A stretch of DNA of 18,703 nt from Candidatus Thermosaccharophagus tengchongensis (GCA_032161105.1 JAVHTD010000035.1); one strand, 5' to 3'; shown: positions 3,551 through 18,703, counted from the stretch's first letter. Notes: generated by a model not told the origin, from the letters alone. Numbers and translations: made by a program.

Positions 3551-4846
3551 CTATGGTGGGAAGCCCGGCAGTGCAATTTCGTTCTCCCTCGGCAATTCAA
3601 CTGTCCCGTTGATGAAGTCCTCAGCGCTTGGCTTTAGCGCGAGGTTGTAAAGTTCTGGGTTCTTGTTTGGGTCGCCCATTATCTCGCTCCAAAAGACTTG
3701 CCGACCGGTGTATGCTGATATGCGTCCCATAATTGCCGTCGCAGTTGATTCAGCGAGGTCCTTAGCTTGGTTTACCGGGATGCCCTTGGCGACATAGTAA
3801 AGCGTGTCAATCTGCTCTTGGACATGGCTGCTTGGACCCCTTGGGAGGTCCGGTGGTATCGGTGATTGCTTTGGCTTTGGATAGTCTGCACCGTTGGTGC
3901 GACCCCTTTCGTAGACGAAGTCATGCCCGACCCAATTCCAGCAGCCATTCACTTGCCTGCACATTGAGTGTATATGCACGCCATCACCGTAGTCGTAGTC
4001 AACGCTAAAGAAGTCGTATTGATCACCGGCATTGCGCCTTGCCCTCCCGCCAAACCCGACGGCGCTCACCGGCGGTCTGCCGACAAACCAATTTGCGATG
4101 TCTATGTTGTGGATATGCTGTTCAACGATATGGTCGCCGGATAGGCAAACCCAATTTTGCCAAGTGCGCACAAGGTCATCGGCATTCTTCGGGTTGATTG
4201 GGCGAGCGGAGAACATATGCCCAATGCAAAATGCCACACGCCCGTAAAAGAGCCTCCCGAGTGCACCCTCAACTGCCACAGCCTGATGAGTGAGCCTGAA
4301 GTTGAAGTCGTGGCGCATCTCCGTCCCCGATGTTATAACCAAGCCCTTCTTTTGCGCCACCTCCGCAGCCGCAATAACTCGCCTGCATCCCGGCGGGTCA
4401 ACAGCGCACGGTTTCTCAATGAATGCGTGTTTTCCAGCCTTGACGACCGCTTCAAGATGTATCGGACGAAACGCCGGCGGCTCGCAAAGAAGGACTATCT
4501 CAACATCCGTCTCAAGCAGTGCCTCATACGCCCTCGGTCCGCCGAAGCATCTCTCTTCAGGAACGCCAAATCTCTTTCCGGCATCAATGGCGCGCTCACG
4601 AAACCAGTCGGCAAGCGCTACTATGCGCACATCAAAGCCGAGTATCTTTCCAGCCTCAATTGCATCAGCGAGCGCGCCCCTACCTCTACCGCCGCACCCG
4701 ATAAGACCGATTTTGAAGGTCTTCGCTTGCGGCTTGACGACGATCGCCGGAAAGCCTGTGGCGCAAATTGCGGCGCCAGCTACAACAGCCCTCCGGACGA
4801 ATTGACGCCTCGTGAGTTTCTCATCACCGCCACTTGAGTTAGCCAT
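3551..4846 (-). CDS. Gfo/Idh/MocA family NAD(P)-dependent oxidoreductase with twin-arginine signal
   Basis: TRRQF Tat motif followed by a hydrophobic stretch; Rossmann IGLIGCGGRG; FIEKP; GDHIVEQHIHNID. Start placed at ATG 4846 because the SD-like GGGGGTGA overlaps the longer ORF's first codons (ORF track start 4864). Confidence 0.92.
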   Translation of the reverse strand: MANSSGGDEKLTRRQFVRRAVVAGAAICATGFPAIVVKPQAKTFKIGLIGCGGRGRGALADAIEAGKILGFDVRIVALADWFRERAIDAGKRFGVPEERCFGGPRAYEALLETDVEIVLLCEPPAFRPIHLEAVVKAGKHAFIEKPCAVDPPGCRRVIAAAEVAQKKGLVITSGTEMRHDFNFRLTHQAVAVEGALGRLFYGRVAFCIGHMFSARPINPKNADDLVRTWQNWVCLSGDHIVEQHIHNIDIANWFVGRPPVSAVGFGGRARRNAGDQYDFFSVDYDYGDGVHIHSMCRQVNGCWNWVGHDFVYERGRTNGADYPKPKQSPIPPDLPRGPSSHVQEQIDTLYYVAKGIPVNQAKDLAESTATAIMGRISAYTGRQVFWSEIMGDPNKNPELYNLALKPSAEDFINGTVELPRENEIALPGFPP

Positions 4847-4892
4847 CGCCATCACCCCCCACACTAAGGCTTTTTGGCGTTAGCCGGTGCCT

Positions 4893-6449
4893 TTAAAGCT
4901 TGCGAATGCGTATGTCCCTTACAGCCCCAGTCGTGCGCCATGTCGCAATGCCGAATGGTATTGACGGTTCGCACTCCCATCGGATTGAAATTTGCTTCCC
5001 CTCAATGACTGCGTCAACAATCTTCTGCGAGTCAAGCCATGCCTCAATCTTGTGCTTCGTCACCCTAACCCTCACCCGATACCATCGTCCGTTCTTGAAC
5101 TGGATGAACCGTGTCGTCTCATTCTGCGAGGCATCAAACCCATCTATGCATGACAGCCCTACGACACTCCCACCCCATCCACCGAGTATCAACGAGCAGT
5201 GGCTATCACCAACTGGGAATGTGAGACCGCAGAAGAAATCAGAGCCGTCAACTCGCATCCCCTGAAGAGTCACCTCGTAATCAATGCGCGGCAGCTCACC
5301 AGCCCAAGTTATGCCGGTCATGTCATTCCCCGCAAGCATGACGACGCGGTCGTTCTCAACGAACACTTCGTTTCTACCAAAGAAGTTGCTCTCCTTCCAT
5401 CCGGCGAGGGTTTGTCCGTCAAACATGAACTGCCATCCCTCTTTCGGGAGCGTCACCGCCCCAATGTCGGTCACTTGATTTGGATTGGCTGAGACATCGC
5501 TTATCGTATATCTCGGGCGCAAATCTCCCTTCATGCGCACATCCAAGCAATGGATTCCGTGTGTCAATCCGGTGAGCACAAATGAGCCATCGTCTTGGAC
5601 TGCGGCTTCGGAATAGCAATCAATTGCGCCATGTGCATATGCAGCAGCTTCGCTTGCTGCTTGCATGCGCTCACTCGGGAATGTCCCAGTTTGCACGGAA
5701 ATGATGCAACCCCTTGCCGGCTCACCGTCACCGAAAAGCAACCGACCGCGAATTGACCCGCCATGTTGCAACTTAAGTTCTATTCGCTGCACGCCATCGC
5801 CCGGCGTCACTTCAATGCACCTGAACAGCATCCGCGCAAACTTGCCCTCTTTATCCCCCTCCACATCCTCAACCCAAACATCGTAAAGCCCACCCGGCAA
5901 ATCATCAATTCGTGCCGCTCCAGCATCTCCTGACCATACCCCTTTCGTGTTTATGGTGATCTCACCATACATGTTGTAGATATGGAGTAGAGCCCTTCTT
6001 CCAAGCCGCTTTCCGTCCGGCGCCTCAATTGCGAACTCAACGGACTCTCTAACCGAGTCAAGTCGGACTTTGCCCAGGTCAACCTTCACGCCGTCCTCTT
6101 TTGGAGCGATGATCGGCGTGACTGAACTGCACGACAAAGTGCCTTTGAAGTATGCGCACAAAAAGAGGCGCTCCATCGGCTCAGCGGTCACGGGCAACTC
6201 AAACGAGCCATCAGCGTTAAGCTTCGTCATCCCAGAAAGCCTCCGTGCATCGTTCGGTATGACCGCATGCACAACGGTTGAAGCGCATATCACCCATTCG
6301 TCAGCCTTACCCGGTATGGATTGGGCTTTGCCTACAACTGTGAAGCTGACTTTGCCGGCGCATTGTGTATCCATCGTCTGATGAGCGAGCAGAGTTAATG
6401 TGATGGAAAGCAAAAGCACAGTTGCGGTGTGCTTCCGGAGAGCAAGCAT
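4893..6449 (-). CDS. Exported protein: carboxypeptidase-regulatory-like beta-sandwich repeats fused to a C-terminal DUF1080 (3-keto-disaccharide hydrolase-like) domain
   Basis: N-terminal hydrophobic segment; repeats such as ARIDDLPGGLYDVWV and GSIRGRLL...DDGSFVLTGLTHG; C-terminal domain begins WQFMFDGQTLAGW and ends AVRDIRIRKL, typical DUF1080 boundaries. SD GGAGGTGA favours ATG 6449 over GTG 6458. Confidence 0.78.
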   Translation of the reverse strand: MLALRKHTATVLLLSITLTLLAHQTMDTQCAGKVSFTVVGKAQSIPGKADEWVICASTVVHAVIPNDARRLSGMTKLNADGSFELPVTAEPMERLFLCAYFKGTLSCSSVTPIIAPKEDGVKVDLGKVRLDSVRESVEFAIEAPDGKRLGRRALLHIYNMYGEITINTKGVWSGDAGAARIDDLPGGLYDVWVEDVEGDKEGKFARMLFRCIEVTPGDGVQRIELKLQHGGSIRGRLLFGDGEPARGCIISVQTGTFPSERMQAASEAAAYAHGAIDCYSEAAVQDDGSFVLTGLTHGIHCLDVRMKGDLRPRYTISDVSANPNQVTDIGAVTLPKEGWQFMFDGQTLAGWKESNFFGRNEVFVENDRVVMLAGNDMTGITWAGELPRIDYEVTLQGMRVDGSDFFCGLTFPVGDSHCSLILGGWGGSVVGLSCIDGFDASQNETTRFIQFKNGRWYRVRVRVTKHKIEAWLDSQKIVDAVIEGKQISIRWECEPSIPFGIATWRTTGAVRDIRIRKL

Positions 6450-6486
6450 CTTCATCACCTCCGTCCCGTGTGTTCCGCGGCGAGTA

Positions 6487-9400
6487 TCAGCATGTTTTTA
6501 AAGCCTTCGCCACTCCATCAACGATGCGCAAAATCGCAGCATATGATGCGCTGGTAATCTTTTCCCATTCGCTTAAAAGACGGGCTGCAGCTTCACTCGG
6601 TGAACGCGCCCCGGTTAGGTGCATAGCCAAATATGAGAACGATGCGTCATTTACGCTTATGCTCCTAACCTGTGGCGATTTGAGGAGTGTGATTGAGGCT
6701 TTCACTGCCCTCAAAAACTCATGCGCTCTCAGCAGTGCCCTCGCATCCTCTTCGCCGAGGAGCTGCAGCTTTGCAGCCGTGTCAATTGCCCTCGCATAGC
6801 TGTGATGCCTCAGCTGGCGGTGCTCGCGAGCATATGCCAGCTGGATCAGCGTTGCCGCAAATTGCAAGTCTGAGAGCCCACCGCGAACATGCTTTGGGTC
6901 AATGGTGTCCTTCTGTGGCGTGTGTTCCCTTTGTATTGTCAGCCAGAGCGTTAGCAGCTCTTCAATCATCCCTCCTTCCAGAAACTGCCCGTGCATTTCC
7001 TCCCATGCCATTTCAATCAACCGATTGGACTTTTCCCAACTCCCAGCGATGTGGCGCATCCTCGGCAGCGAGAGAAGATGCCATGGTTCAAGCATTCTCA
7101 GAGCCGCATGCCATCCCTCTTCTGAATGCGATAATGAAGTGCCACCCAATGGGCGCAGGCGAACATCAACCCTATAGGCAATGCCATCCTCGGTGTTGTC
7201 TGAAAGGAGCTTGATCAGGCGTATGGTGGTTTCCTCTGCGCCATCCCATCCGGATTCGTGGATGAACGACAGGTCTAAGTCAGACGCGTAGTGTAGCTCT
7301 TGAGCGCCCAATCCGCCGAACCCCAGCACAGCTATTTGCACATTGTGTTCGTGTGGTATTGCTGTAGCCTCATCGGCTCTCAATGAATGGCGCAATGCCG
7401 CATTGATTACGATGTCGGCAATTGCGGCGAGGGCAAAGGATGCCTCAACTGTGTTGAGGATGCCGTTGACTTCCATAAAGCCCACGCGCAGGCTCTCTCT
7501 GTGCTTGAACCTTCTGAGGAGATGCATTGCTTCCCTATCCGTCCTTGCGGACATGATGCGTTCGGACAGCTGGTAGCGAAGCGTTTCAATCTCCATTGCC
7601 CTTCTCATTGGTTCCCTAAGCACCGCTTCCAAATGCTCCGGGTAGCGCATCATCAGGTCGCTCAAAAACTCGGAGAAGGAAATGCACCTTAGGAGCATAC
7701 GGAGGGTGACTTCATTTGAGCACAATGATGAGATGAACGCCGCCCTGTTTCCGATCGCTGTTGAAAGCTGCTCCAGACGCTGTATAGCTGCATCCGGGCT
7801 GACGGTTTGAGATGCAGCCCTTAGCACTGTCGGGAGGGAACGCAGCACCGCTATCCTTTCCCTCGCGCTCAGGTTAACTCCAGCTGGTCCTTTAAGCAGC
7901 AGGCGCAATGCCTTCATTGTATCGCTCGCATTGGCAAAGCCATATTCCGAGAGCTGCCTTGCCAATGCCAATTCATCATCCAGCGCAATTGACCCCACAT
8001 CCTCAAAAGCTCTCCTAACGATGCTGTCAAGCTCGTTCAATATGCGCTCGTAAATTGAGCGCACCCTATCGGTGTGCATCCTGTAGTCCGAGATGAGCGA
8101 GTTGACTGGATCTTTTGTGTAGCCCATTCTCCTTGCGACCCTTTCAAGCTCATCTTGTGATTCAGGCAGCTCATGCATCGGCAGGTGCTCGGCTATCTGA
8201 AGCATGTGCTCAAGCTTTCTCAGGAAGATGTAGCTTTCCCGGAGGGAGTTAGCCTCCTCATCCGTGAGCAGCGATAGCTTGTGTAGTTCGTCAATCGCGC
8301 ACAGCGTGTTTGTCGTCTTCAGGGCATCAAATCTGCTGCCGAGGGTAAGCTGCAGCAGCTGCACCACAAATTCAATGTCCCTTATTCCGCCACGCCCAAC
8401 TTTAACATCAGCGTGCGAGCGCGCCATCCCTTCACTGTGCCTCTTTATCTCCAGCAACGAGGCAAAGGCGTTGTGCTCAAATGGTGCCATGTAGACATAG
8501 CTTTCGGCGAACCGCTCAAAGCGCAAAGCGAGCCTCACATCGCCGGCTATCGGTCTCGCCTTTATCAACGCCATTCGCTCCCAAGCCCTCGCCCAAGATT
8601 CGTAATAGCTCATCATCGCTCCCCACTCAAGCGCAATAGGACCATCCCGTCCATATGGGCGAAGGCGCAAGTCAACTCTATATGCGCATCCATAGTCGGT
8701 GACTTCCGATAGACCCTTAAGCAAAGCTTGCGATAGCTTCTCTGCGGTGAGTGTGGCAATGCGCCTTAAATGCTCCTCATCGCCGCTTGAAGTTGGACTG
8801 CACAATGCCCATGAGAGGATTGAGTCCCTGTCAAATGAGAACATCAAGTCAATGTCAGAACTGTAGTTGAGCTCCATCCCGCCGAGCTTCCCAAGAGCTA
8901 TGACGAGGAAGCCGCACTCCTGCTGAGGGATGTTTGCGCCAACTTGCTTTAATGCTATGTCAAGCCCAGCCCTTACAACAGCTTCGGCGAGCGCTGTAAG
9001 TTCGGATAGGACATCCTCACAGCGCATCATGCCGAGTATATCAGCTGCAATTATTCTCAATGACTCCCTTCGCCTGAACCTGCGCAGGCTCTCCCACTTT
9101 CGCTTTGTCTCCTTAAAGGCATTGACTGTCAGCATTGCCTCCCTCGCCATTGCTTCAAAACCCTTAGGTGTGCGCAGCTGGCTGACCGGGAAGAGCAAGC
9201 TCAAATACTCCGGGTGAAGGCAAAGCGTGTCTGCGGCGTAGTTACTTGTGCCGAGGAGTTTGATGAGCGCATACAATGTTGCCATGCTGTCCTTGAGCCA
9301 TTGAAGCAGGCGCAGCTTTCCGGCGGCATCGCATAACCGTTCAAAGTTCACAAGTGCCAAGTCAGGGTCTGGCGACAACCTAAACGCCTCAAGCAGTTCG

Positions 9401-9579
9401 TCCAAGATGGGTGCGAGCTTCAGTGCCACTTGCACATCAGACGCGAAGCGCAACAATACCCTCCATGCGCCAAAGCCGTCTTTGAATGTCCGGCTGACCA
9501 ACTGGCGTGCAGCTTCCGTGAGTTCCCTTCGCAGCAGCGCTTCAACGAGTGCGTTGGCAGCACTTTGCGGCGCCATCAT
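6487..9579 (-). CDS. glnE: Glutamine synthetase adenylyltransferase / adenylyl-removing enzyme
   Basis: Two nucleotidyltransferase halves: ALGKLGGMELNYSSDIDL...YRVDLRLRPYG...WERMALIKAR...GGIRDIEF and GFGGLGAQELHYASDLDL...YRVDVRLRP...GGLSDLQF. Start placed at ATG 9579, which overlaps the glnD stop (ATGA); longest ORF starts at 9597. Confidence 0.94.
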   Translation of the reverse strand: MMAPQSAANALVEALLRRELTEAARQLVSRTFKDGFGAWRVLLRFASDVQVALKLAPILDELLEAFRLSPDPDLALVNFERLCDAAGKLRLLQWLKDSMATLYALIKLLGTSNYAADTLCLHPEYLSLLFPVSQLRTPKGFEAMAREAMLTVNAFKETKRKWESLRRFRRRESLRIIAADILGMMRCEDVLSELTALAEAVVRAGLDIALKQVGANIPQQECGFLVIALGKLGGMELNYSSDIDLMFSFDRDSILSWALCSPTSSGDEEHLRRIATLTAEKLSQALLKGLSEVTDYGCAYRVDLRLRPYGRDGPIALEWGAMMSYYESWARAWERMALIKARPIAGDVRLALRFERFAESYVYMAPFEHNAFASLLEIKRHSEGMARSHADVKVGRGGIRDIEFVVQLLQLTLGSRFDALKTTNTLCAIDELHKLSLLTDEEANSLRESYIFLRKLEHMLQIAEHLPMHELPESQDELERVARRMGYTKDPVNSLISDYRMHTDRVRSIYERILNELDSIVRRAFEDVGSIALDDELALARQLSEYGFANASDTMKALRLLLKGPAGVNLSARERIAVLRSLPTVLRAASQTVSPDAAIQRLEQLSTAIGNRAAFISSLCSNEVTLRMLLRCISFSEFLSDLMMRYPEHLEAVLREPMRRAMEIETLRYQLSERIMSARTDREAMHLLRRFKHRESLRVGFMEVNGILNTVEASFALAAIADIVINAALRHSLRADEATAIPHEHNVQIAVLGFGGLGAQELHYASDLDLSFIHESGWDGAEETTIRLIKLLSDNTEDGIAYRVDVRLRPLGGTSLSHSEEGWHAALRMLEPWHLLSLPRMRHIAGSWEKSNRLIEMAWEEMHGQFLEGGMIEELLTLWLTIQREHTPQKDTIDPKHVRGGLSDLQFAATLIQLAYAREHRQLRHHSYARAIDTAAKLQLLGEEDARALLRAHEFLRAVKASITLLKSPQVRSISVNDASFSYLAMHLTGARSPSEAAARLLSEWEKITSASYAAILRIVDGVAKALKTC

Positions 9580-12215
9580 GCCCATATCGGTGTCCATGGC
9601 TTCTCAAGTCGCTCCCTAAGTTCCTTCTCAAGCTCGTCCAACTCGTCGTCCGGGACCTTTTTCCTATCCCTCGTGACGACATAGAATGAGTCTTCGGCGA
9701 CATCACGCCATGTCGCAATCTTCGCAGTGACGATGTCCAAGCCAAGCGAAGATATGGCACTCGTGATCCTGAAGAGCAGCCCCTTCCTATCATCAGCCTT
9801 GATGTGGATGACAGTGCAGGCTTCTGACACCGAGTTGCTCACCGACAGTTTGTGAATGCTCACAGAGAAGGCATCCTCCAATCCGGCTTCCTCAAGCAGC
9901 TGCTTAACGCTCACATCTTTGTTGAGCACCATCTCAATTGCTTCCTTTATGCGCCTTGCCTTGGCTTCACTCACTTGCCCATACCTTGTCCGTATGAGGA
10001 GGGAGTCAAGGACGACACGCCTTTCTCCTGCATCATATGCCTCAGCCTTAAACTCGCTGGGGATGGTCACGGTTATTGCCTGAGCCATCCTTATGTCCAC
10101 ATCTTGGGCATACAATGTGCCGCATATCTTGCTGAGCAAGCCGGGCATCGGCTCATCATAAGCGCAGATTATGAGGCTGGAAAAATCGGCACCCGGCTCG
10201 CTGCGTATGGTTATGACCGGTTTTTCTGTCTCCATCAGGCTGTCAATCATCCTGAGGTGCTCAGCTATTGTCTCCGTGGTGTTGTTGAGCAAGTAGCCCG
10301 TCGGAAATGCCGATAAGACAAACTCAATTTGCTGTGGCGTTAGCCCGTATCGTTTTAGCCGGTGAGAGAGCGTTGTCCGGCGTTCCCTCACCATCGTTTG
10401 CAAGTCAGCTTCGGCTTGCTTTGAAAGGTATCGGTTGAGGTTTATGAACAGGCTGTCAAGGAGCTCCCTTTCAAGGGCTGTGAATGTCTGTTTGCTCACA
10501 GCTTGAGCATCGGCGTATGAGAGGAGGTAAAGCATGCGAAGCAAATCGGTGTCATTAATCCTCTCGGCAAGGCGCATTATGACGGTCTCGTCTTGGATGT
10601 CGTGCAGGCGCGCTGCCCTCAAAAGAAGCATGTGATTTCTGATGAGCTCTACAAGCAGCCTTTTCCTGTCCGGGTCAAGCCCAAACTCATTCCCAACATC
10701 CTCGGCGAGCTTTGCGCTGGCTTCGCAATGCCCCTCCTCATCCTCCGTCTGTATCTTCCCGAGGTCGTGAAGAAGGGCAGCAAGGTGCAATATTGAGCGG
10801 TCGCTTACATCCTTCCAAACTTCACCTATGAGCGTCTCAGCGCCCCTGCCGGTTCGTTCCAATTCAGCCAAGTTGAGCATCGTGCGCACGCAGTGAGCGC
10901 CAACGGTGAGTTCGTGTGCCCTGTTGCTCGGCACAAGATGCATTGCCATCTTGAGTTGCGGAATGCATGCTTGCAGCACGCCGAGTTCAACCATCTCTTC
11001 CACTGCCCTCTGAGGCGATGGATGAGCGAGTATGTTAATTAGCTTCTTGCCGCACCATTCCGAGCGAGGCAGCTCACCACCCAACCTGTTGATGGTTTCC
11101 CTTATGGCGTCGCGCAGTTCGTGGGAGAATGTCAGGTTGTATTGCTGCGCATGCTCAAACGCCGTGAGCACCAACTGGGTATCCCTTATCAGCATGTTGG
11201 CATCTCGTATGTATAGGCGTTGATGCTCCGCGTAGAAGTGCTGGTCAATGTTAATCCGCATTTCAAGCGCCATCTGCTCAACGCGCCTTGCGAGCGCATT
11301 CACAAACTCGGCGTATCCATACAGGAGTTCAAACATGATCGTTGGGGTTAACTTGAGGTCGCAGGCAATCTGCTCGTGATATTCGCGCAGAAGCGTATCC
11401 TCCCTCTTACCGGCTCGCAAGTGAAGCCAGTTTCTGATTGTCAGGAAGAAGTCAAGAGCTTCTTGGAGCTTGGTCGCCTCATCGCGGCTCAGCGCACCAA
11501 CCTCGCACAGTTTGAACGGCGTTACTGGCGGATGTATCCCGTGGATGGACGCGAGCAGCCACTGGGTTTGCTGTATATCTCGCAGCATGCCGATGCCTTG
11601 TTTGATGTTTGGCTCGGTGAGGTGTAATGGCTTCCCAAAGGCGCTGCTCCGCTCAGCCACCTTATCTTGCACAAACGCCATGATGTCCATTGTCTCGTGC
11701 AGCAAATTAATGAGCGCATTATAAAGCCTTTCGCTGCCGGCGATGAGGCGGGCATCCATTAGGGCGGTCTTGGTGAGGCTATCCAAGCTCGGTATGTCCT
11801 CAAGTGGTCTGTAAGCGTAGCCGAGGCGCAAGTCTGTGGCATCAATGATTGTGGATATGAGGAGCCTGAAGGCGTGCTTCAGTGCGGCGTCAATGAATGG
11901 GTTGTCCTGTTCCGATGGCACGAAGGTTATGTCAACATCCGAGAATGGGCAAAGCTGCATCCTGCCGTAGCTCCCCGTCGCCACGATGGCAATCTCTGTC
12001 CCGCCGGGTTGGTAATATTGGCCAGCGACTTTGAATGCGTGAGATAGCGAGAGCTCATAAATCCTTCGCATCAACTTGTCCAAGCCCTGCGTTATCTCGG
12101 CGCACAACCTAAGCCCGCTCACGCTTTGGAGTTGTGTTTCTCGTATTCGTTTGCGCCACAGCCTTGCCTCCTCTTGCAACTCAACCTGCTGGCAGCTCAT
12201 TTCATCGTGGCACAT
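9576..12215 (-). CDS. glnD: PII uridylyltransferase / uridylyl-removing enzyme
   Basis: Nucleotidyltransferase motif ATGSYGRMQLCPFSDVD; EPNIKQGIGMLRD; HD domain (HELTVGAH...LAALLHDLGK); two C-terminal ACT domains (DEPMPGLLSKI; DDRKGLLFRI...AKIAT...AEDSFYV). Confidence 0.94.
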   Translation of the reverse strand: MCHDEMSCQQVELQEEARLWRKRIRETQLQSVSGLRLCAEITQGLDKLMRRIYELSLSHAFKVAGQYYQPGGTEIAIVATGSYGRMQLCPFSDVDITFVPSEQDNPFIDAALKHAFRLLISTIIDATDLRLGYAYRPLEDIPSLDSLTKTALMDARLIAGSERLYNALINLLHETMDIMAFVQDKVAERSSAFGKPLHLTEPNIKQGIGMLRDIQQTQWLLASIHGIHPPVTPFKLCEVGALSRDEATKLQEALDFFLTIRNWLHLRAGKREDTLLREYHEQIACDLKLTPTIMFELLYGYAEFVNALARRVEQMALEMRINIDQHFYAEHQRLYIRDANMLIRDTQLVLTAFEHAQQYNLTFSHELRDAIRETINRLGGELPRSEWCGKKLINILAHPSPQRAVEEMVELGVLQACIPQLKMAMHLVPSNRAHELTVGAHCVRTMLNLAELERTGRGAETLIGEVWKDVSDRSILHLAALLHDLGKIQTEDEEGHCEASAKLAEDVGNEFGLDPDRKRLLVELIRNHMLLLRAARLHDIQDETVIMRLAERINDTDLLRMLYLLSYADAQAVSKQTFTALERELLDSLFINLNRYLSKQAEADLQTMVRERRTTLSHRLKRYGLTPQQIEFVLSAFPTGYLLNNTTETIAEHLRMIDSLMETEKPVITIRSEPGADFSSLIICAYDEPMPGLLSKICGTLYAQDVDIRMAQAITVTIPSEFKAEAYDAGERRVVLDSLLIRTRYGQVSEAKARRIKEAIEMVLNKDVSVKQLLEEAGLEDAFSVSIHKLSVSNSVSEACTVIHIKADDRKGLLFRITSAISSLGLDIVTAKIATWRDVAEDSFYVVTRDRKKVPDDELDELEKELRERLEKPWTPIWA

Positions 12216-12231
12216 TTAAGCCTCGCCTCTC

Positions 12232-12573
<342 letters not shown>

Positions 12574-12618
12574 TCAGCTCAACCTCCCTCAGACTTCTGG
12601 GGATAACTGACACCCTCT

Positions 12619-12630
12619 TTTGGTTTGCGG
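12619..12630 (-). repeat. Copy 1 of a 12-bp motif CCGCAAACCAAA (reverse strand)
   Basis: TTTGGTTTGCGG at 12619-12630 is the exact reverse complement of 13800-13811. Confidence 0.5.
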
Positions 12631-12636
12631 GAGAGG

Positions 12637-13635
12637 CTATGCAAAAAGCCTAACCCTCTCTTTCTTGAACTCGCGCTTTGAAGGGAGCATGCGCCACTTA
12701 TACTGCCCAACGATGCACAGCATTCGTTCCACAAGCTCTCTGACACTCCCTTCGTTCGCTCCGTGAATCATGGTGTAAAGCGAGAAGCCCCACATCGGGT
12801 ATCTTGGGCGCTGGTAGCAATGGCTCACGCATGGCAGCGAGGCTAATTTCCTTCCGACCGTTTCAACATCCTCATCGGGGACATCCCATACGACCAGAGC
12901 ATTTGCTGCATAGCCGAGAAGCCTGTGATTCACCGATGCGGCAATGCGCCTTAACCTGCCCTCGCTTGACAGCAGCAGCGAGCGCTCAATCAGCCATACT
13001 TCATCAACACCGTGCTTTCTCGCAAGCTCTTTAAATGGTTCGCTCACAAGCGGGAATTCGCCCTGCAAGATGCGTATGCACGCTATATCATCATCGTCAA
13101 TCTGCCGGGTCGGCATCTTCATCTCTTCAGTCTGGTTGTAAATGTTGCCGAGACGAAGTGAAGCATCCAATGCGACTCCGACCTTGAATGTTCGCAGCGC
13201 CGGAAGGAGCATCCAATCGCTGACTTTGCAGATGTGGGCGAGTTGAAAGATTGTATTGTGCAAGTCTTGTGCTTGCGGGAGCACTACAGTGAACCAAAGG
13301 TTAAACTCAGCCTCCCGTTCATAGTTGTGGCTGACGAACGGCATTGAGTTCACTTTGTTGGCGACCTCATCAATCCTCGCCTCTTCAACGGTGAATGCGA
13401 CGAGTGCCGTTTTATACCCGACCTTTGAGGCATCAAATATGGCGCTTATGCGGCGCAGCAAATTCATCCCTTTCATGCGCTCAAGCCTGCTTATCACATC
13501 CGCCTCACTCATGGCGAGCTGCTGCCCGAGTGAGTGGAATGGCTTTCGTTCAATGGGTATGCCAAGTTGCACCCTGTTGAGCAGTTCAATGTCTGCGTCA
13601 TTGAGGTAACTGCGCAAGTGCCCATTGATGCCCAT
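12637..13635 (-). CDS. Fused siroheme decarboxylase AhbA/AhbB (NirDL-like; two Lrp/AsnC-like halves)
   Basis: Two HTH + AsnC-like halves, each with an HxYxR motif: VSHNYER...FNLWFT and VSHCYQRP...FSLYTMIH; ends EFKKERVRLF. SD GGAGG upstream. Confidence 0.88.
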   Translation of the reverse strand: MGINGHLRSYLNDADIELLNRVQLGIPIERKPFHSLGQQLAMSEADVISRLERMKGMNLLRRISAIFDASKVGYKTALVAFTVEEARIDEVANKVNSMPFVSHNYEREAEFNLWFTVVLPQAQDLHNTIFQLAHICKVSDWMLLPALRTFKVGVALDASLRLGNIYNQTEEMKMPTRQIDDDDIACIRILQGEFPLVSEPFKELARKHGVDEVWLIERSLLLSSEGRLRRIAASVNHRLLGYAANALVVWDVPDEDVETVGRKLASLPCVSHCYQRPRYPMWGFSLYTMIHGANEGSVRELVERMLCIVGQYKWRMLPSKREFKKERVRLFA

Positions 13636-13950: not shown

Positions 13951-15234
13951 ATGCGCAAGAATGGCGAAAGCCAATCTCGGTCTGTGACGAGGCGCGAATT
14001 CTTGCTTATCGGTGCCGCTGCGGCAGCTGGCATTGCCTCATCTGGATGGAAGAAGAGCCGAGCATACGCTCTCGCCGGTCCGGGGAGGGTCATTGGAGCG
14101 AATGACCGCATAAATGTCGGCGTGATCGGATGCGGTGGCATGGGGACTCACCACCTCCGTAAGCTTGTAGACGCTTCAAAGAGTGGCAAAGAGAACATTC
14201 AAGTCATTGCGGTGTGTGACATTTACGAAAAGCGCCTCAACAACGCCGTCCAAATATCCGGTGCAAAGCCGTTCAAGGACTATCGCAAGTTACTTGAATG
14301 GCAGGATGTTGATGTCGTTTGGATCGCCACACCGGAGCACTGGCATGCGAGGATGGCAATTGATGCTATGGAAGCCGGGAAGGACATCTACCTTGAAAAG
14401 CCATTCACGAGATACCTTGATGAAGCCAAGCAAGTATACGAGACGGCTTTGCGCACAAAGAGTGTTGTCCAAGTTGGCTCTCAGGGTTGTTCTGAGAATG
14501 TATGGCACAGGGCAGCTGAGTTGGTTAAAAGCGGCAAACTCGGCAAGGTAGTTTGGGCACAGGCAAGCTATTGCAGGAACTCAAAAGAGGGGGAGTGGAA
14601 TTACCCAATAGATCCTGACGCAAAGCCCGGCGTCAACCTTGATTGGGATGCATTTCTCGGACCGGCTCCAAAACGCCCTTGGGATCCAGAGAGGTTTTTC
14701 AGGTGGCGCAAGTTCTGGGATTATTCGGGCGGCATTGGAACAGACTTATTCCCGCATGTTCTCAACACGCTCCTATTAGCCATAGGCGCTGAGTTCCCAA
14801 CGAGGGTGGTCGCAAGCGGTGGAATCTATGTTCACAAGGATAGAGAGGTGCCAGATACATACCACATGATCGTTGAGTATCCGGGCAACTACAATGTGGT
14901 TGTGCTTTCATCAATGGCAAACGAGGTTGGAGTCCCGACACTGATTAGAGGGCATGAGGCGACGATGGAGATAAGTGGCAACAGGATAATTATCCGCCCG
15001 ACACGCCCATACGCAGAGGAGAGGGAAGTTGAGGAAGTGCAAGTTGAGCCAACGCCAGATAGCGTTGCGGCGCACCACAAGAACTTCTTTGAGTGTGTGC
15101 GCACTCGCGGTAAGCCAAACTGCGATGTTGAGCTCGCATACAAAGTTATGGTTGCCGTCGGTCTCGCTGAGCTTTCCTACAGGCAAGATAAGGTGATGAA
15201 GTTTGATCCGAGCACTCAACGAGTTATCTCGTGA
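13951..15234 (+). CDS. Gfo/Idh/MocA family oxidoreductase with twin-arginine signal
   Basis: VTRREFL Tat motif; GANDRINVGVIGCGGMG; IATPEHWH; YLEKP; GGIGTDLFPH (DxxxH); SD GGGGGTGA upstream. Confidence 0.94.
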   Translation: MRKNGESQSRSVTRREFLLIGAAAAAGIASSGWKKSRAYALAGPGRVIGANDRINVGVIGCGGMGTHHLRKLVDASKSGKENIQVIAVCDIYEKRLNNAVQISGAKPFKDYRKLLEWQDVDVVWIATPEHWHARMAIDAMEAGKDIYLEKPFTRYLDEAKQVYETALRTKSVVQVGSQGCSENVWHRAAELVKSGKLGKVVWAQASYCRNSKEGEWNYPIDPDAKPGVNLDWDAFLGPAPKRPWDPERFFRWRKFWDYSGGIGTDLFPHVLNTLLLAIGAEFPTRVVASGGIYVHKDREVPDTYHMIVEYPGNYNVVVLSSMANEVGVPTLIRGHEATMEISGNRIIIRPTRPYAEEREVEEVQVEPTPDSVAAHHKNFFECVRTRGKPNCDVELAYKVMVAVGLAELSYRQDKVMKFDPSTQRVIS

Positions 15235-15414
15235 TCGCATTTGGTGACAATCCTTAGCATCCCCAGTTTGTAGGCAACATGGATTGCGAAGTTGAATATG
15301 GTGCGCTTTGCAAGCCACCTGCGGATGACAGTTTGGTGGCTGGTGCTTTGAACATCAACGCAAGTGGGCGTTTGCTTCTGCTGATAGTTTTTCTCGCCCA
15401 AAGGAGTTGGAGCT

Positions 15415-16437
15415 GTGGAGCAGTGTAGGGGAGTAAATTCGTTCAATCTGCCCTTTGTGATGGCGGCGCGCATAGCTATGGCATGCAGGTTTGAGATTAT
15501 TGCAGTTGATGACGGACGCAATGACCTTCATGCAATCCTTGAAAGGGCGCTTGATGAAGTTGAGCAGCTGGAAATGCAACTAAGCCCATTCGTTGATGAT
15601 AGCCACCTCAGCGACCTCAACAGGCGCGCTCACCATGAGCCTGTAAGGGTTGAGCCGCAGTTTTATTGGCTCATTAAGCGCGCTGTGCAAATTGGCATTG
15701 AGACGCAAAGCGCATTTGATATCACCGTAGGTGCTTTAACGATCCCGATGAAGCTTGGCAACCGCCCCGAAATTGAAACACAGCTGCGGATGCGCAGCGA
15801 AGTTGAAGGCAATGCCGAGTTACCGATAGGATTACAATGGCTGCAGTTGGACGATGAGGCAATGACAGTGCGTTTCCTCCAATGCGGTATGATGATTGAC
15901 CTGTGTGGCATTGCAAAGGGCTATGCTGTTGATAAGGTTGCAAGCTACCTCATGGATGAGGGCGTGCGCGACTTTTTCGTGCACGCTGGCAAGAGCTCAA
16001 TCTATGCTGCTGGGAAGCAGCCCAACTTTAACGGTTGGGTTGTCGGAATAACCGATCCATTAGAGCCATCAAGGCGGTTAGCTACCATAGAACTTAGGGA
16101 CATGGCAATGGGCGTCTCCGAGTGGCACAGCAACTCCGCATATGGCAGACGATTGCACATCTTTGACACGCGCGCTTGTTCCACCATTGTTGAGGGCATA
16201 TGTGGCAGTGGTGAGAGGGTGATTCGTGCTTATGCAATTTGCAGCAGCGCAACGGAGGCAGACGCGCTTTCAACGGCATTCCTACTGCTTGGTTGCGATG
16301 GCGTAAAAAGTTACTGCGAGAGCCATGCAGGAGTTGGGGCGGTGCTGATCGTCCAAAGTGATGATGGCGTTTATGTTGTCACCTATGGGCTTGAGGGAAT
16401 CCCAGATTGTCGCTGCCGTGCCACTGTATATCGTTGA
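15415..16437 (+). CDS. apbE: FAD:protein FMN transferase (ApbE family), no signal peptide
   Basis: AMACRFEI, LEMQLSPF, AFDITVGAL, IDLCGIAKGYAVD, WVVGITDP, HIFD, ATEADALSTAF are ApbE motifs; SD AAGGAG at 15401-15406 before GTG 15415; no hydrophobic leader or lipobox. Confidence 0.9.
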   Translation: MEQCRGVNSFNLPFVMAARIAMACRFEIIAVDDGRNDLHAILERALDEVEQLEMQLSPFVDDSHLSDLNRRAHHEPVRVEPQFYWLIKRAVQIGIETQSAFDITVGALTIPMKLGNRPEIETQLRMRSEVEGNAELPIGLQWLQLDDEAMTVRFLQCGMMIDLCGIAKGYAVDKVASYLMDEGVRDFFVHAGKSSIYAAGKQPNFNGWVVGITDPLEPSRRLATIELRDMAMGVSEWHSNSAYGRRLHIFDTRACSTIVEGICGSGERVIRAYAICSSATEADALSTAFLLLGCDGVKSYCESHAGVGAVLIVQSDDGVYVVTYGLEGIPDCRCRATVYR

Positions 16438-16440
16438 AGG

Positions 16441-16493
16441 GAGCGATTTGACGGGATTGGCTTTTTGAAATCGCGTGGCGGCGCAAATCGCTC
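16441..16493 (+). other. Intergenic stem-loop between apbE and the second oxidoreductase
   Basis: Perfect 10-bp inverted repeat GAGCGATTTG (16441-16450) / CAAATCGCTC (16484-16493), with an inner 7-of-8 stem ACGGGATT (16451-16458) / AATCGCGT (16469-16476). No U-tract follows. Confidence 0.6.
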
Positions 16494-16547
16494 ATCGCTA
16501 TCAAGCTTTGGAGCAATGAGCAAGCGATACTGTAGGAGGTGAGCGAA

Positions 16548-17804
16548 GTGTCACAAGTTACAAGGCGCGACTTCGTCATTGGCAGTGCAACCGTTTTCAC
16601 TTTGACATCTTTAATGCGTTCCGAAGCGGAGGTATCCGAGAAGGTGACCAAAGAGAAGGTGCTGTGTGGTGTCATTGGTGTCGGCGTTCACGGGAGGCTT
16701 TTGTTGAAGGAGCTTATGCGCATGAGTGATGTTGAGGTTGTGGCACTGTGCGATGTTTACCAACCAAACTTGGAGCGAGCGCTGAAGGGCATCGGAAAAG
16801 CAGTGCGAGCATATTCCGACCACAGGCAGATGCTTGAAAAGGAGAAGGAAATGCAAGCCATAATCATAGCCACGCCAACCGGGACGCATGTTCCCATTTC
16901 AATTGATGCGCTGCAAGCGGGGAAGCATGTTTATTGTGAAGCCCCGCTTGCGAATGACATTGATGACTGCAAGCGCATGGTCAAGGCTGCTGAAGCGAGC
17001 GATAAAGTCTTTCAAGTTGGCTACCAAAGGCGCTTCAATCCGCTATACAGGCATGCTCTCAAATTCATTAGAGTCGGTGCAATAGGGCAGCCGGTGCAAG
17101 CTCGTGCACATTACAATCGTAAGGATTCTTTGCGCCGCCCAGTCTCGGATGCGAAGTATGAGAAGTTGCTCAACTGGCGGTTGTATCGCCATACATCTGG
17201 AGGCTTAGCTGTTGAATTTGGCTCACACCAACTTGATGTGGTGAATTGGTTTTTGGGCGCAACGCCAATATCAGTAGTTGGGAACGGCGGGATTGACATA
17301 TGGAAAGATGGCAGAGAGGTGCATGACAACATTCATCTGCTGTTTGAATATCCGAAGGGTGTAAAGGTGACATATACTGCAACGCTCGGATGTAGCTACG
17401 AGCGGCATTATGAGCTTTTGCTCGGGACAATGGGCGCAATGTGGTTCTCAAAGGAGCAGATTGGTCTATGGTTCAAGGAACCAGACGCACCGGAGCTTGG
17501 TTGGGAAATTTATGCCCGTAAAGAGCAGCTCGGTGATGCGCTTGGTATAGTCCTTGATCCGGAGGCGTCAAAGTATGCAGCACAGCTTGAAGGCGGATTT
17601 AAGCCGCCGCAGAAAACCGAGGCGGAGCTTAAAAGCCCATTCTATATCGCCCTGAGTGAATTCTTTGACTGCATCCGCGAGGGTAAAAAGCCAGCTTGCA
17701 CTGCAAGGGAGGCGTTGCAAGCTACAGTTACGGCGATTGTAGCTGCTGCGGCAATTGAGAAGGGTGAAAAGATCACCTACCGCCAAGAATGGTTTGAGGT
17801 TTAG
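16548..17804 (+). CDS. Gfo/Idh/MocA family oxidoreductase-like protein with twin-arginine signal (EKP motif altered to EAP)
   Basis: VTRRDF Tat motif; GVIGVGVHG; IATPTGTH; HVYCEAPL; FQVGYQRRF; GGLAVEFGSHQLD. SD AGGAGGTGA overlaps the ORF-track start (16539), favouring GTG 16548. Confidence 0.92.
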   Translation: MSQVTRRDFVIGSATVFTLTSLMRSEAEVSEKVTKEKVLCGVIGVGVHGRLLLKELMRMSDVEVVALCDVYQPNLERALKGIGKAVRAYSDHRQMLEKEKEMQAIIIATPTGTHVPISIDALQAGKHVYCEAPLANDIDDCKRMVKAAEASDKVFQVGYQRRFNPLYRHALKFIRVGAIGQPVQARAHYNRKDSLRRPVSDAKYEKLLNWRLYRHTSGGLAVEFGSHQLDVVNWFLGATPISVVGNGGIDIWKDGREVHDNIHLLFEYPKGVKVTYTATLGCSYERHYELLLGTMGAMWFSKEQIGLWFKEPDAPELGWEIYARKEQLGDALGIVLDPEASKYAAQLEGGFKPPQKTEAELKSPFYIALSEFFDCIREGKKPACTAREALQATVTAIVAAAAIEKGEKITYRQEWFEV

Positions 17805-17849: not shown

Positions 17850-17901
17850 CCAAACCGATGATGGCAGCAATGAAATGCATGCACCATTATCGGCGTTTTG
17901 G
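17850..17901 (+). terminator. Terminator-like hairpin after the oxidoreductase-apbE-oxidoreductase run
   Basis: CCGATGATGG (17855-17864) / CCATTATCGG (17884-17893), 10 bp with one G-U pair, followed by CGTTTTGG and T-rich sequence. The loop is long (19 nt) and the U-tract imperfect. Confidence 0.4.
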
Positions 17902-18281
17902 CTTCCTTTGTTGGTAGGGTAATGTGCTTGGTGAGTCAATGGCTAATTACTCACTTTGCTTGGGCAGTAAACGGTGCGGGTGGTCTGGGACGAACTTTTT
18001 GGCAACAAGAGGCTGGAGATGTGCAACCGGGAAGTTACGGCTTCTCGCCGCATTGGGGAGGCGGACGCTGAGAATACGGAAGGAGGAAGATCGGCGCGGC
18101 AAAAACCTGATTTACCACTGGCGACCGTCTGAGTAGTAGAAAAAAGTTGCAAGCGCAGCATACTTGGGGAGTTGAAAGCGGGTGAAACGAAAAGATGAAG
18201 CGTTGAGGGTTCGCGCAAGGTTTGATGGGCTTGTAGTTTTCGGTAAGTTGCAAAGTGAGCGAACAAAAGAGGTTGAGAAGG

Positions 18282-18703
18282 GTGGGTAGCAAACTACCTC
18301 GCTTGAAAGTTTTTGACGACCCTAAACATCCAAACAACCGCCGCTTCCTCGTCACAGAAAAAGGTCAACCCTTCTTCCACCTTGGTGACACTGATTGGGA
18401 ACTATTTCACATCTCTCATGCGAGGACTCCTTGGCAAAAGGCGTTGCATTTGCCCGGTGCATCTCAGGTCAGGCACGCAAAGGCTTTGATGCTTTCACGA
18501 CCGATGTTGCTTCGGATTCCAGACCAAACTTTGCTTGCATCAGATCCCGGGACAGGTGCAGAACATGTTCGCGCAGCAAGGGCAATTGACGGAAGTTACG
18601 CCTTCGTTTACATCCCGGTCCCAAAGCCGGTTAAGGTTCGGCTTGACAAGTTGTCAGGGAGGGAGGTTCGTGCATGGTGGTATGACCCGAGGTTGGGAGA
18701 GGC
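18282..18703 (+). pseudogene. DUF4038 / GH140 apiosidase-like gene with the catalytic domain deleted in frame; retains the C-terminal collagen-binding-like domain (runs off window)
   Basis: Hand translation from GTG 18282 (GAGGT upstream) is open to the edge: MGSKLPRLKV...NRRFLVTEKGQPFFHLGDTDWELFH|ISHARTPWQKALHLPGASQVRH...SRPMLLRIPDQTLL...DGSYAFVYIP...VRAWWYDPRLGE. The first 43 aa match the family N-terminus (FFxLGDTAWELFH); the rest matches the region that normally follows the barrel. Confidence 0.8.

Follow-up and report, generated by a model that had tools for sequence, protein, structure and literature searches.

What does a flavin transferase that lacks an export signal do between two genes for exported sugar oxidoreductases? 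The arrangement lies on an 18,703-nucleotide stretch of Candidatus Thermosaccharophagus tengchongensis DNA (GCA_032161105.1, JAVHTD010000035.1; hereafter the window), which is an entire contig (C35) of a 2.74 Mb genome that is 97.4% complete. Database labels on its nearest homologues suggest Candidatus Fervidibacterota / Armatimonadota. On its + strand, an ApbE-family gene (15415..16437, 340 amino acids) stands between Gfo1 (13951..15234, 427 amino acids) and Gfo2 (16539..17804, 421 amino acids), two Gfo/Idh/MocA oxidoreductases with twin-arginine translocation (Tat) leaders. An earlier note on this DNA had described the three open reading frames, the two leaders and the leaderless ApbE just as we find them, and had proposed a co-exported complex in which ApbE either recycles the nicotinamide cofactor, NAD(P)H, or flavinylates a non-canonical site. 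Our analysis points to Gfo2 as the substrate. The Gfo2 family very probably contains ApbE substrates, and the combination of motif, neighbourhood, fusions and structural model makes it likely that ApbE places flavin mononucleotide (FMN) on Ser344 of the window Gfo2. As for the whole mechanism, in which an NAD(P)-dependent sugar dehydrogenase works outside the cytoplasm and is served by a flavin transferase encoded with it, we lean towards this reading on balance.

The evidence begins with an insert of approximately 55 residues (about residues 312-366; 17472..17636, + strand) that Gfo2 carries before its last helices and Gfo1 lacks. It consists of a short helix, a hairpin, the candidate site and a linker modelled with lower confidence. 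The candidate non-canonical flavinylation site, L339-D-P-E-A-S344 (17553..17570, + strand; Ser344 codon 17568-17570), reads GIVLDPEAS in the window, and relatives read in register AITLDTGAT, AIVVTSGAT and GIALVAGAS. At position 344, the best 120 of 796 Gfo2 homologues carry Thr (111 sequences) or Ser (9 sequences), amid variable flanking positions. The non-canonical site invoked in the earlier note thus acquires a candidate from homologue conservation and an in-register motif. In the AlphaFold2 model of Gfo2, which has a predicted local distance difference test score (pLDDT) of 94.7, Ser344 begins the helix after the hairpin at pLDDT ~78 and is followed by a linker at 66-69, values that fit a mobile arm. 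By analogy with inositol dehydrogenase, we take the insert to leave the fold near the substrate pocket. A second candidate, LGAT at Gfo2 residues 239-242, was rejected because it is unconserved and follows a helix in the protein core.

We employed a profile of 36 Gfo2 sequences, partly drawn from ApbE-adjacent genes, against 1.84 billion representatives and took the best 150. The insert is complete in 133 of these, and the other 17 were set aside. The strict flavinylation motif, [ST]GA[ST], was present inside the insert in 27 of the 133 (300 shuffles: mean 1.3, maximum 5), and the full D-x-x-[ST]-G-A-[ST] in 19 (shuffles: mean 0.09, maximum 2), for example as VDGVSGAT and VDAISGAS. Outside the insert the strict motif occurred once in 45,834 residues, compared to 27 proteins in the 7,657 residues inside, and it was absent from all 47 Gfo paralogue tails of the organism's own genome. 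The distance from motif to C-terminal helix has a family median of 32, against 31 in the window Gfo2.

The presumed donor enzyme is a member of the flavin transferase family by sequence, and FMN transfer is its predicted activity. It matches the ApbE family PF02424 (E 3.5e-45) with 155 bits against a curated cut-off of 25.6, and scores 80.8 bits against the E. coli-type equivalog, below the cut-off of 498. Its AlphaFold2 model (pLDDT 88.6) aligns by Foldseek with solved FmnB, Ftp and ApbE folds at template modelling scores of 0.70-0.78. A GTG start at 15415 is supported by AAGGAG at 15401-15406, and the N-terminus shows neither a twin arginine (RR) nor a hydrophobic stretch nor a lipoprotein or other secretion signal. 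By alignment the protein retains Ser235, His248 and Asp283, corresponding to the Ser-His-Asp triad residues named in PMC12052999. Around them it has diverged: VSE replaces the canonical TSG, HAGKSS replaces xGGD, and the loop bearing His248 is shortened and modelled at low confidence. The window branch as a group reads HxGxS where canonical ApbEs, including the second copy in this genome, read xGGD. The His is invariant in the 114 aligned homologues out of 120 listed, and Ser, His and Asp/Glu are all present in the window ApbE and in most members of its branch. Among the exceptions are the ApbEs of this branch in genus g2, which belongs to the sister family: they have lost the catalytic His and carry Glu for Asp (L008, L009, L012-L014, L017, L019, L031, L199, L200), which makes them a natural test of whether flavin transfer survives.

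Several observations weigh against flavinylation at Ser344. The window Gfo2 fails the D-x-x-[ST]-G-A-[ST] test that its family passes at the equivalent site: LDPEAS344 has no Gly, and its Asp stands at -4 instead of -6. It also belongs to the Gfo2 forms that lack the lysine of the EKP motif, and the strict motif occurs in 2 of 41 such Lys-less representatives compared to 25 of 92 Lys-bearing ones. Neither the strict nor the window-type pattern was found in 76 of the 133 representatives, or in 61 of the 92 Lys-bearing ones, and the enrichment of the window-type pattern is circular because that pattern was drawn from these same sequences. On the enzyme side, the ApbE His is missing from ten genomes of genus g2, two fusions and one other locus. 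Flavinylation may accordingly have decayed in the Lys-less branch, leaving Gfo2 as a pseudo-enzyme or scaffold for Gfo1 and ApbE as a folding or export chaperone or a pyrophosphatase of flavin adenine dinucleotide (FAD). The degenerate motif, the change of TSG to VSE, the loss of His in genus g2 and two fusions, the low model confidence around His248 and a predicted ApbE-Gfo2 interface away from Ser344 would all suit such decay. We nevertheless judge it quite unlikely, given that Ser or Thr is kept at position 344 in all of the best 120 of 796 homologues amid varying neighbours, that the catalytic residues persist in the window ApbE and most of its branch, and that replacing any one of the motif residues Asp, Gly and Ala lowers flavinylation without abolishing it (PMC12052999).

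The association of the ApbE and Gfo genes exceeds chance. The triad is present in order in all three genomes of the same genus and in both genomes of genus g3. In three other phyla, we examined 24 Gfo2-anchored loci (Acidobacteriota 12, Bacteroidota 4, Planctomycetota 8; three seed loci found via ApbE were excluded), and ApbE lay within 6 kb of Gfo2 in 20. In the organism's own phylum the count was 10 of 16 loci, chosen non-randomly out of 33, with two more at 8-9 kb. Gfo2 is carried by at least 9 of 61 Acidobacteriota, at least 4 of 81 Bacteroidota and at least 9 of 51 Planctomycetota genomes, seed loci included. All 9 Acidobacteriota carriers are among the 10 best ApbE-scoring genomes of the 61, 24 further genomes of which have ApbE but not Gfo2 (genome G068 is counted only within those 24 and the 61). 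Across 17 genomes from other families of the own phylum, ApbE occurs in 11 and Gfo2 in 10, and presence agrees in 16; two own-phylum genomes with more than 85 Gfo candidates have neither. These genome tallies count any ApbE because scores with the A3 profile overlap (243-402 bits for leaderless, 269-289 for canonical ApbE) and cannot separate the two kinds. Gfo2 itself is usually single-copy, with one match in 27 of 30 genomes having it, amid dozens of Gfo paralogues, and its family was seen in Armatimonadota, Acidobacteriota, Planctomycetota, Bacteroidota and Verrucomicrobiota.

Viewed from ApbE, the association is looser, and this counts against Gfo2 as the dedicated target. Only 29 of 80 ApbE-anchored loci hold Gfo1 or Gfo2 (17 of 45 with 3 kb flanks) and none holds both; the 80 include 23 with Gfo2, 6 with Gfo1, 8 with DoxX and 6 with a multihaem cytochrome, many on short contigs. 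In genus g2, moreover, the triad genes are often apart. The pairing of ApbE with two Gfo genes put forward in the earlier note is therefore conserved in the same genus and in g3, although the three genes are not always adjacent. Conceivably ApbE serves a canonical target encoded elsewhere and the three genes are mere neighbours, as the 51 of 80 loci without Gfo1 and Gfo2, many on short contigs, and 84 open reading frames of the genome with [ST]GA[ST], a level that may be due to chance, would allow. The earlier note had found no [ST]GA[ST] in the two oxidoreductases and no known target in the window. We likewise found the motif in none of Gfo1, Gfo2 and ApbE, and extending the search to the whole 97.4% complete genome gave no match to FMN_bind, RnfD/NqrB or Flavodoxin_4, a DUF2271 match only below cut-off and three short FMN_red matches. 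The enriched motif, the fused forms, the co-occurrence and the modelled complex each indicate Gfo2, and a target elsewhere is scarcely probable.

Two further lines of evidence concern where, and how closely, ApbE and Gfo2 meet. The Gfo1 leader (13951..14070, + strand; read from the sequence) has RR at residues 14-15 within TRREFL, an uncharged hydrophobic region (h-region; score 1.83) and AYA at residues 38-40. That of Gfo2 has TRRDFV, an uncharged h-region and SEA; residues are numbered from 16539, and a GTG at 16548 is a possible alternative start. With RRxF, a hydrophobic stretch and a cleavage site in each, and TatC encoded in the genome, both are predicted Tat substrates. RR leaders alone carry no weight, because at least 14 of the 47 own-genome Gfo paralogues bear one. 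More informative are nine sequences in which ApbE and Gfo2 are fused: P0022, P0054, P0064, P0065 and P0077 (5 of 120 homologues), P0278, P0296 and P0301 (from the representatives) and locus L187, a stop-free open frame of 723 codons. All nine place ApbE first and keep an intact, full Tat leader internal to the chain. The eight fusion proteins have no Met within 40 residues before the RR; in L187 an ATG (28 codons away) and a GTG (two codons away) precede the RR, and translation might begin internally there.

This layout resembles that of class V Tat substrates, in which a folded N-terminal domain stays on the cis side of the membrane (PMC13673990), and for that reason favours flavinylation in the cytoplasm. 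Flavins are among the cofactors inserted before Tat export (PMC13673990), and a leaderless ApbE, placed before the Tat signal in the fusions, argues for the same order of events. We thus think it fairly probable that ApbE flavinylates Gfo2 in the cytoplasm before export. One finding opposes this order: an RR motif stands at the N-terminus of 49 of 120 ApbE homologues, as would fit export of ApbE itself. The h-regions that accompany RR in free ApbEs are weak (median 0.63, compared to 1.75 for Gfo2), and 109 of 115 unfused Gfo2 homologues carry RR. A Sec-like N-terminus was seen in 35 of 114 ApbE homologues.

The RRxF-like start of those 49 homologues (among P0121-P0240), mostly without a proper hydrophobic stretch, is perhaps a docking signal for the Tat pore and not an export signal. 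A search for longer ApbE forms returned seven other fusions and missed those with Gfo2. In P0241, P0242, P0243, P0244 and P0246, ApbE is fused to PF06452/PF16011 domains, presumably carbohydrate-binding family 9-like.

We modelled the complex from Gfo2 residues 38-421, ApbE, FAD and Mg in three runs with three controls. The score was 0.73 in all three runs and 0.00 in the best control, the runs agreed in at least 92% of contacts, and partner pLDDT was at least 80. Of 157 solved pairs 116 attained the score mark, as did 2 of 215 mismatched ones, a calibration that is only rough for our own alignments with ligands. The model supports ApbE-Gfo2 binding, and that part of the complex proposed in the earlier note is now backed by both fusions and model. 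The predicted interface involves Gfo2 residues 50-63, 80-87, 196-203, 307 and 364-369. On the Gfo2 side it draws on the first Rossmann helix, a conserved loop at 196-203 and the last part of the insert, which face an acidic N-terminal surface of ApbE. Ser344 lies outside the confident contacts, a point against the proposed mechanism. If ApbE docks on the Gfo2 body, even a motif that has drifted could be modified; a permanent subunit would fit the model equally well.

Such a subunit would flavinylate Gfo2, stay bound and be exported with it, and in the strong form its own FAD would recycle NAD(P)H. The modelled interface on the Gfo2 body away from Ser344, the fusions, the RR motifs on 49 of 120 ApbE homologues together with an encoded TatC, and the existence of hitchhiker Tat export (PMC13673990) are all in keeping with it. 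We regard it as unlikely, as all nine fusions retain the internal Tat leader after ApbE in the class V layout, the free-ApbE RR motifs have the weak h-regions described above, and the ApbE literature, as excerpted from PMC12052999, describes transfer chemistry only. The idea that ApbE is itself the redox subunit recycling NAD(P)H received no support, the flavin being more likely to end on Gfo2.

If Gfo2 is the flavin carrier, what does it carry electrons from? Gfo1 and Gfo2 share Rossmann and C-terminal domains, a GxGxxG motif and a GFO_IDH_MocA Pfam match (E 2e-25 and 5e-25, respectively). The EKP lysine and the D/ExxxH motif are catalytic in inositol dehydrogenase. Gfo1, which has no flavin insert, keeps EKP (149-151) and DxxxH (265-269); the earlier note had called the second oxidoreductase altered, and Gfo2 indeed reads E134-A135-P136 at the position of EKP. 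In the best 120 of 796 Gfo2 homologues, Glu226 and His230 are invariant, and the residue at position 135 is most often Ala (77 sequences), followed by Lys (37). The best NCBIfam match of Gfo1 is BT_2158_fam (NF058561) at 153.9 bits, and Gfo2 scores 94.6 bits, both below the cut-off of 750; the best Protein Data Bank match of Gfo1 is 8TDF (E 6e-33). From these features, Gfo1 is presumed to be the catalytic sugar (3-)dehydrogenase subunit.

Gfo1 is found with one form of Gfo2 only: it shares the locus with 20 of 22 Lys-less and 0 of 18 Lys-bearing Gfo2 genes, and among the 17 own-phylum genomes it is present in exactly the 8 having Lys-less Gfo2. In a FastTree phylogeny (139 rows, insert omitted), the window-type Lys-less Gfo2 sequences form one clade of 32 rows with 99% support. 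The link to Gfo1 is for that reason probably one inherited event, which lessens its weight. We infer that Lys-bearing Gfo2 combines enzyme and flavin arm in one chain and that in the window form this labour is split between Gfo1 and Gfo2. DoxX or a multihaem cytochrome adjoins 8 of 18 Lys-bearing Gfo2 loci. In four Planctomycetota loci, Lys-less Gfo2 is followed by an unnamed membrane protein of ~255 amino acids with one CxxCH (L188:5240-6040, L191:7232-7993, L193:1-808, L194:1401-2159), two of which were tested and gave no Pfam match; this mono-haem protein is a candidate electron acceptor.

In the mechanism that we favour, ApbE would bind Gfo2 and move FMN from FAD onto Ser344 of the insert, in the cytoplasm and before Tat export. 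Gfo2, without the lysine of sugar oxidation, would pair with Gfo1, which retains it, and Gfo1 would oxidise a glycoside, probably to a 3-keto sugar. The FMN on the flexible arm of Gfo2 would reoxidise the bound NAD(P)H of the exported sugar dehydrogenase. In the last and weakest step, a membrane carrier, which in other lineages would be DoxX or a cytochrome, would accept the electrons of the reduced flavin. The membrane partner anticipated in the earlier note does adjoin Gfo2 in those lineages and is missing from this window. That neither DoxX nor a cytochrome is adjacent here, and that the genome gave no match to the DoxX or mono-haem partners of other lineages, both count against the proposed sink. 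The possible carrier here would be a multihaem cytochrome c/b cluster on contig C7, where a 7-haem membrane cytochrome is similar (E 4e-29) to one encoded next to Gfo2 in another phylum.

Electrons might also take another route. Flavinylation may be right and the flow reversed, from the membrane to NAD(P) for a periplasmic reductase, or internal, with a hydride shuttle between Gfo1 and Gfo2 in a two-sugar oxidation-reduction. Retention of GxGxxG, Glu226 and His230 in Gfo2, the lack of a membrane partner in the window and the proposal that BT2158 recycles its cofactor on a second sugar (PMC8121099) would agree with either. We consider both together improbable, because the DoxX and cytochrome neighbours, like the aerobic, sugar-using life of cultured Fervidibacter (PMC11535203), fit an oxidative sink, and a two-sugar cycle requires no flavin.

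In the C7 cluster (G000:C7:55857-71224), genes for a membrane protein of 10 helices, the 7-haem membrane cytochrome and a 16-haem cytochrome lie downstream of a Tat-Gfo gene, with genes nearby that we read as probably serving haem and riboflavin synthesis. The single DoxX match of the genome was discarded as better called MauE. Elsewhere, a recurring cluster of ApbE, a PMT/STT3-like glycosyltransferase and a galactose-binding-like protein (L180, L181, L185, L058, L078, L086, L089) often also has a multihaem cytochrome c plus cytochrome b561.

A bolder view would make Gfo2 the founding member of a new covalent flavoprotein class, an NAD(P):FMN relay exported through Tat and carrying a swinging flavin arm on a Gfo scaffold. 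As a shared hub for cofactor recycling, it might connect numerous NAD-dependent sugar dehydrogenases outside the cytoplasm with the respiratory chain via DoxX or cytochromes. We hold this extension to be doubtful. If true, it would explain why, of 31 Gfo-like enzymes of Fervidibacter sacchari, many highly expressed and 11 with Tat signals, none was active in E. coli (PMC11535203). A Gfo2 substrate would name a substrate class for the 'orphan' ApbE enzymes that the main survey leaves unexplained (PMC8238504), and would suggest, in testable form, how sugar dehydrogenases that depend on NAD(P) dispose of their electrons once exported. Were an LDPEAS or LVADAT site confirmed to work, it would widen the known flavinylation motif and bear on flavin-tagging.

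The remainder of the genome and window supplies context. The genome has 48 PF01408 matches and two ApbE genes. The second ApbE (G000:C3:4754-5959, L001) is canonical in type with a hydrophobic N-terminal stretch, and for it, too, the genome yielded no known target family. The window also holds a third Gfo/Idh/MocA gene with a Tat leader (3551-6458, - strand), which adjoins one for a 521-amino-acid protein with a C-terminal 3-keto-disaccharide hydrolase domain, a hint from sequence of 3-keto sugar metabolism close to the triad. Orthologues of the second ApbE in the sister family adjoin a relative of this third Tat-Gfo in 6 of 7 loci, and five relatives that were checked contain no GA[ST] motif. 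At 1116-3545 (- strand) lies a gene whose 809-amino-acid product probably starts with a signal peptide and matches no Pfam family. The run at 6487-13635 (- strand) is ordinary: glnE, glnD and the gene for a PII protein follow a fused siroheme decarboxylase-like (NirDL/AhbAB) gene. From 17880 to 18703 there is no long open reading frame, only short + strand pieces that resemble remnants of a DUF4038-type gene. One metatranscriptome yielded contigs over the three genes and none on the flanks (share 0.14, strandless, DNA contamination possible), another run gave 12 scattered reads and two more gave zero; these RNA data were not used as evidence.

How does this system compare with those already characterized? 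LacABC, which is FAD-dependent and of the GMC type, has another fold and cofactor and no ApbE. Its job, periplasmic glucoside 3-dehydrogenation linked to cytochrome c, is the one proposed here (PMC8121099). Closest to Gfo1 among named families are BT2158 glycoside 3-dehydrogenase and Zymomonas glucose-fructose oxidoreductase, Tat-exported Gfo/Idh/MocA enzymes with bound NAD(P) for which recycling on a second sugar is known or proposed and, in the excerpted text, no flavin partner is described; the oxidant of BT2158 is left there as an unidentified sugar (PMC8121099).

Against the known ApbE substrates, namely FMN_bind (NqrC, RnfG, NosR, PceC), RnfD/NqrB, DUF2271, DUF3570, Flavodoxin_4 and FMN_red variants, the candidate stands apart as an NAD(P)-binding Gfo/Idh/MocA fold with a non-canonical motif. 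We found no description of ApbE flavinylating a Gfo/Idh/MocA protein in a literature search that left most subscription journals outside its range. 'Gfo' occurs 0 times in the main text, as available, of the ApbE-substrate surveys PMC8238504 and PMC11334425; the supplementary gene-cluster tables of the former could list Gfo neighbours. ApbEs typically, though not always, carry a lipoprotein or secretion signal, unlike the leaderless window copy, and PMC8238504 dropped genes without a signal peptide. The cytoplasmic ApbE of Klebsiella pneumoniae and the ApbE domains of trypanosomatid fumarate reductase are, as here, leaderless or fused and dedicated to one enzyme (PMC12052999); their substrates are intracellular FAD reductases, whereas Gfo2 bears a Tat leader and the Rossmann fold of NAD(P)-binding proteins. 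Flavodoxin_4 and DUF2271 substrates, like Gfo2, have a motif inserted into a fold that already existed, and their genes adjoin apbE or are fused with it (PMC11334425, PMC8238504). With the ApbE/FmnB/Ftp transferases the window ApbE shares fold and triad, and our best reading from sequence is of a known-family enzyme acting on a new, Gfo2-type substrate, a system that would work like other pairs of an ApbE and its dedicated substrate.

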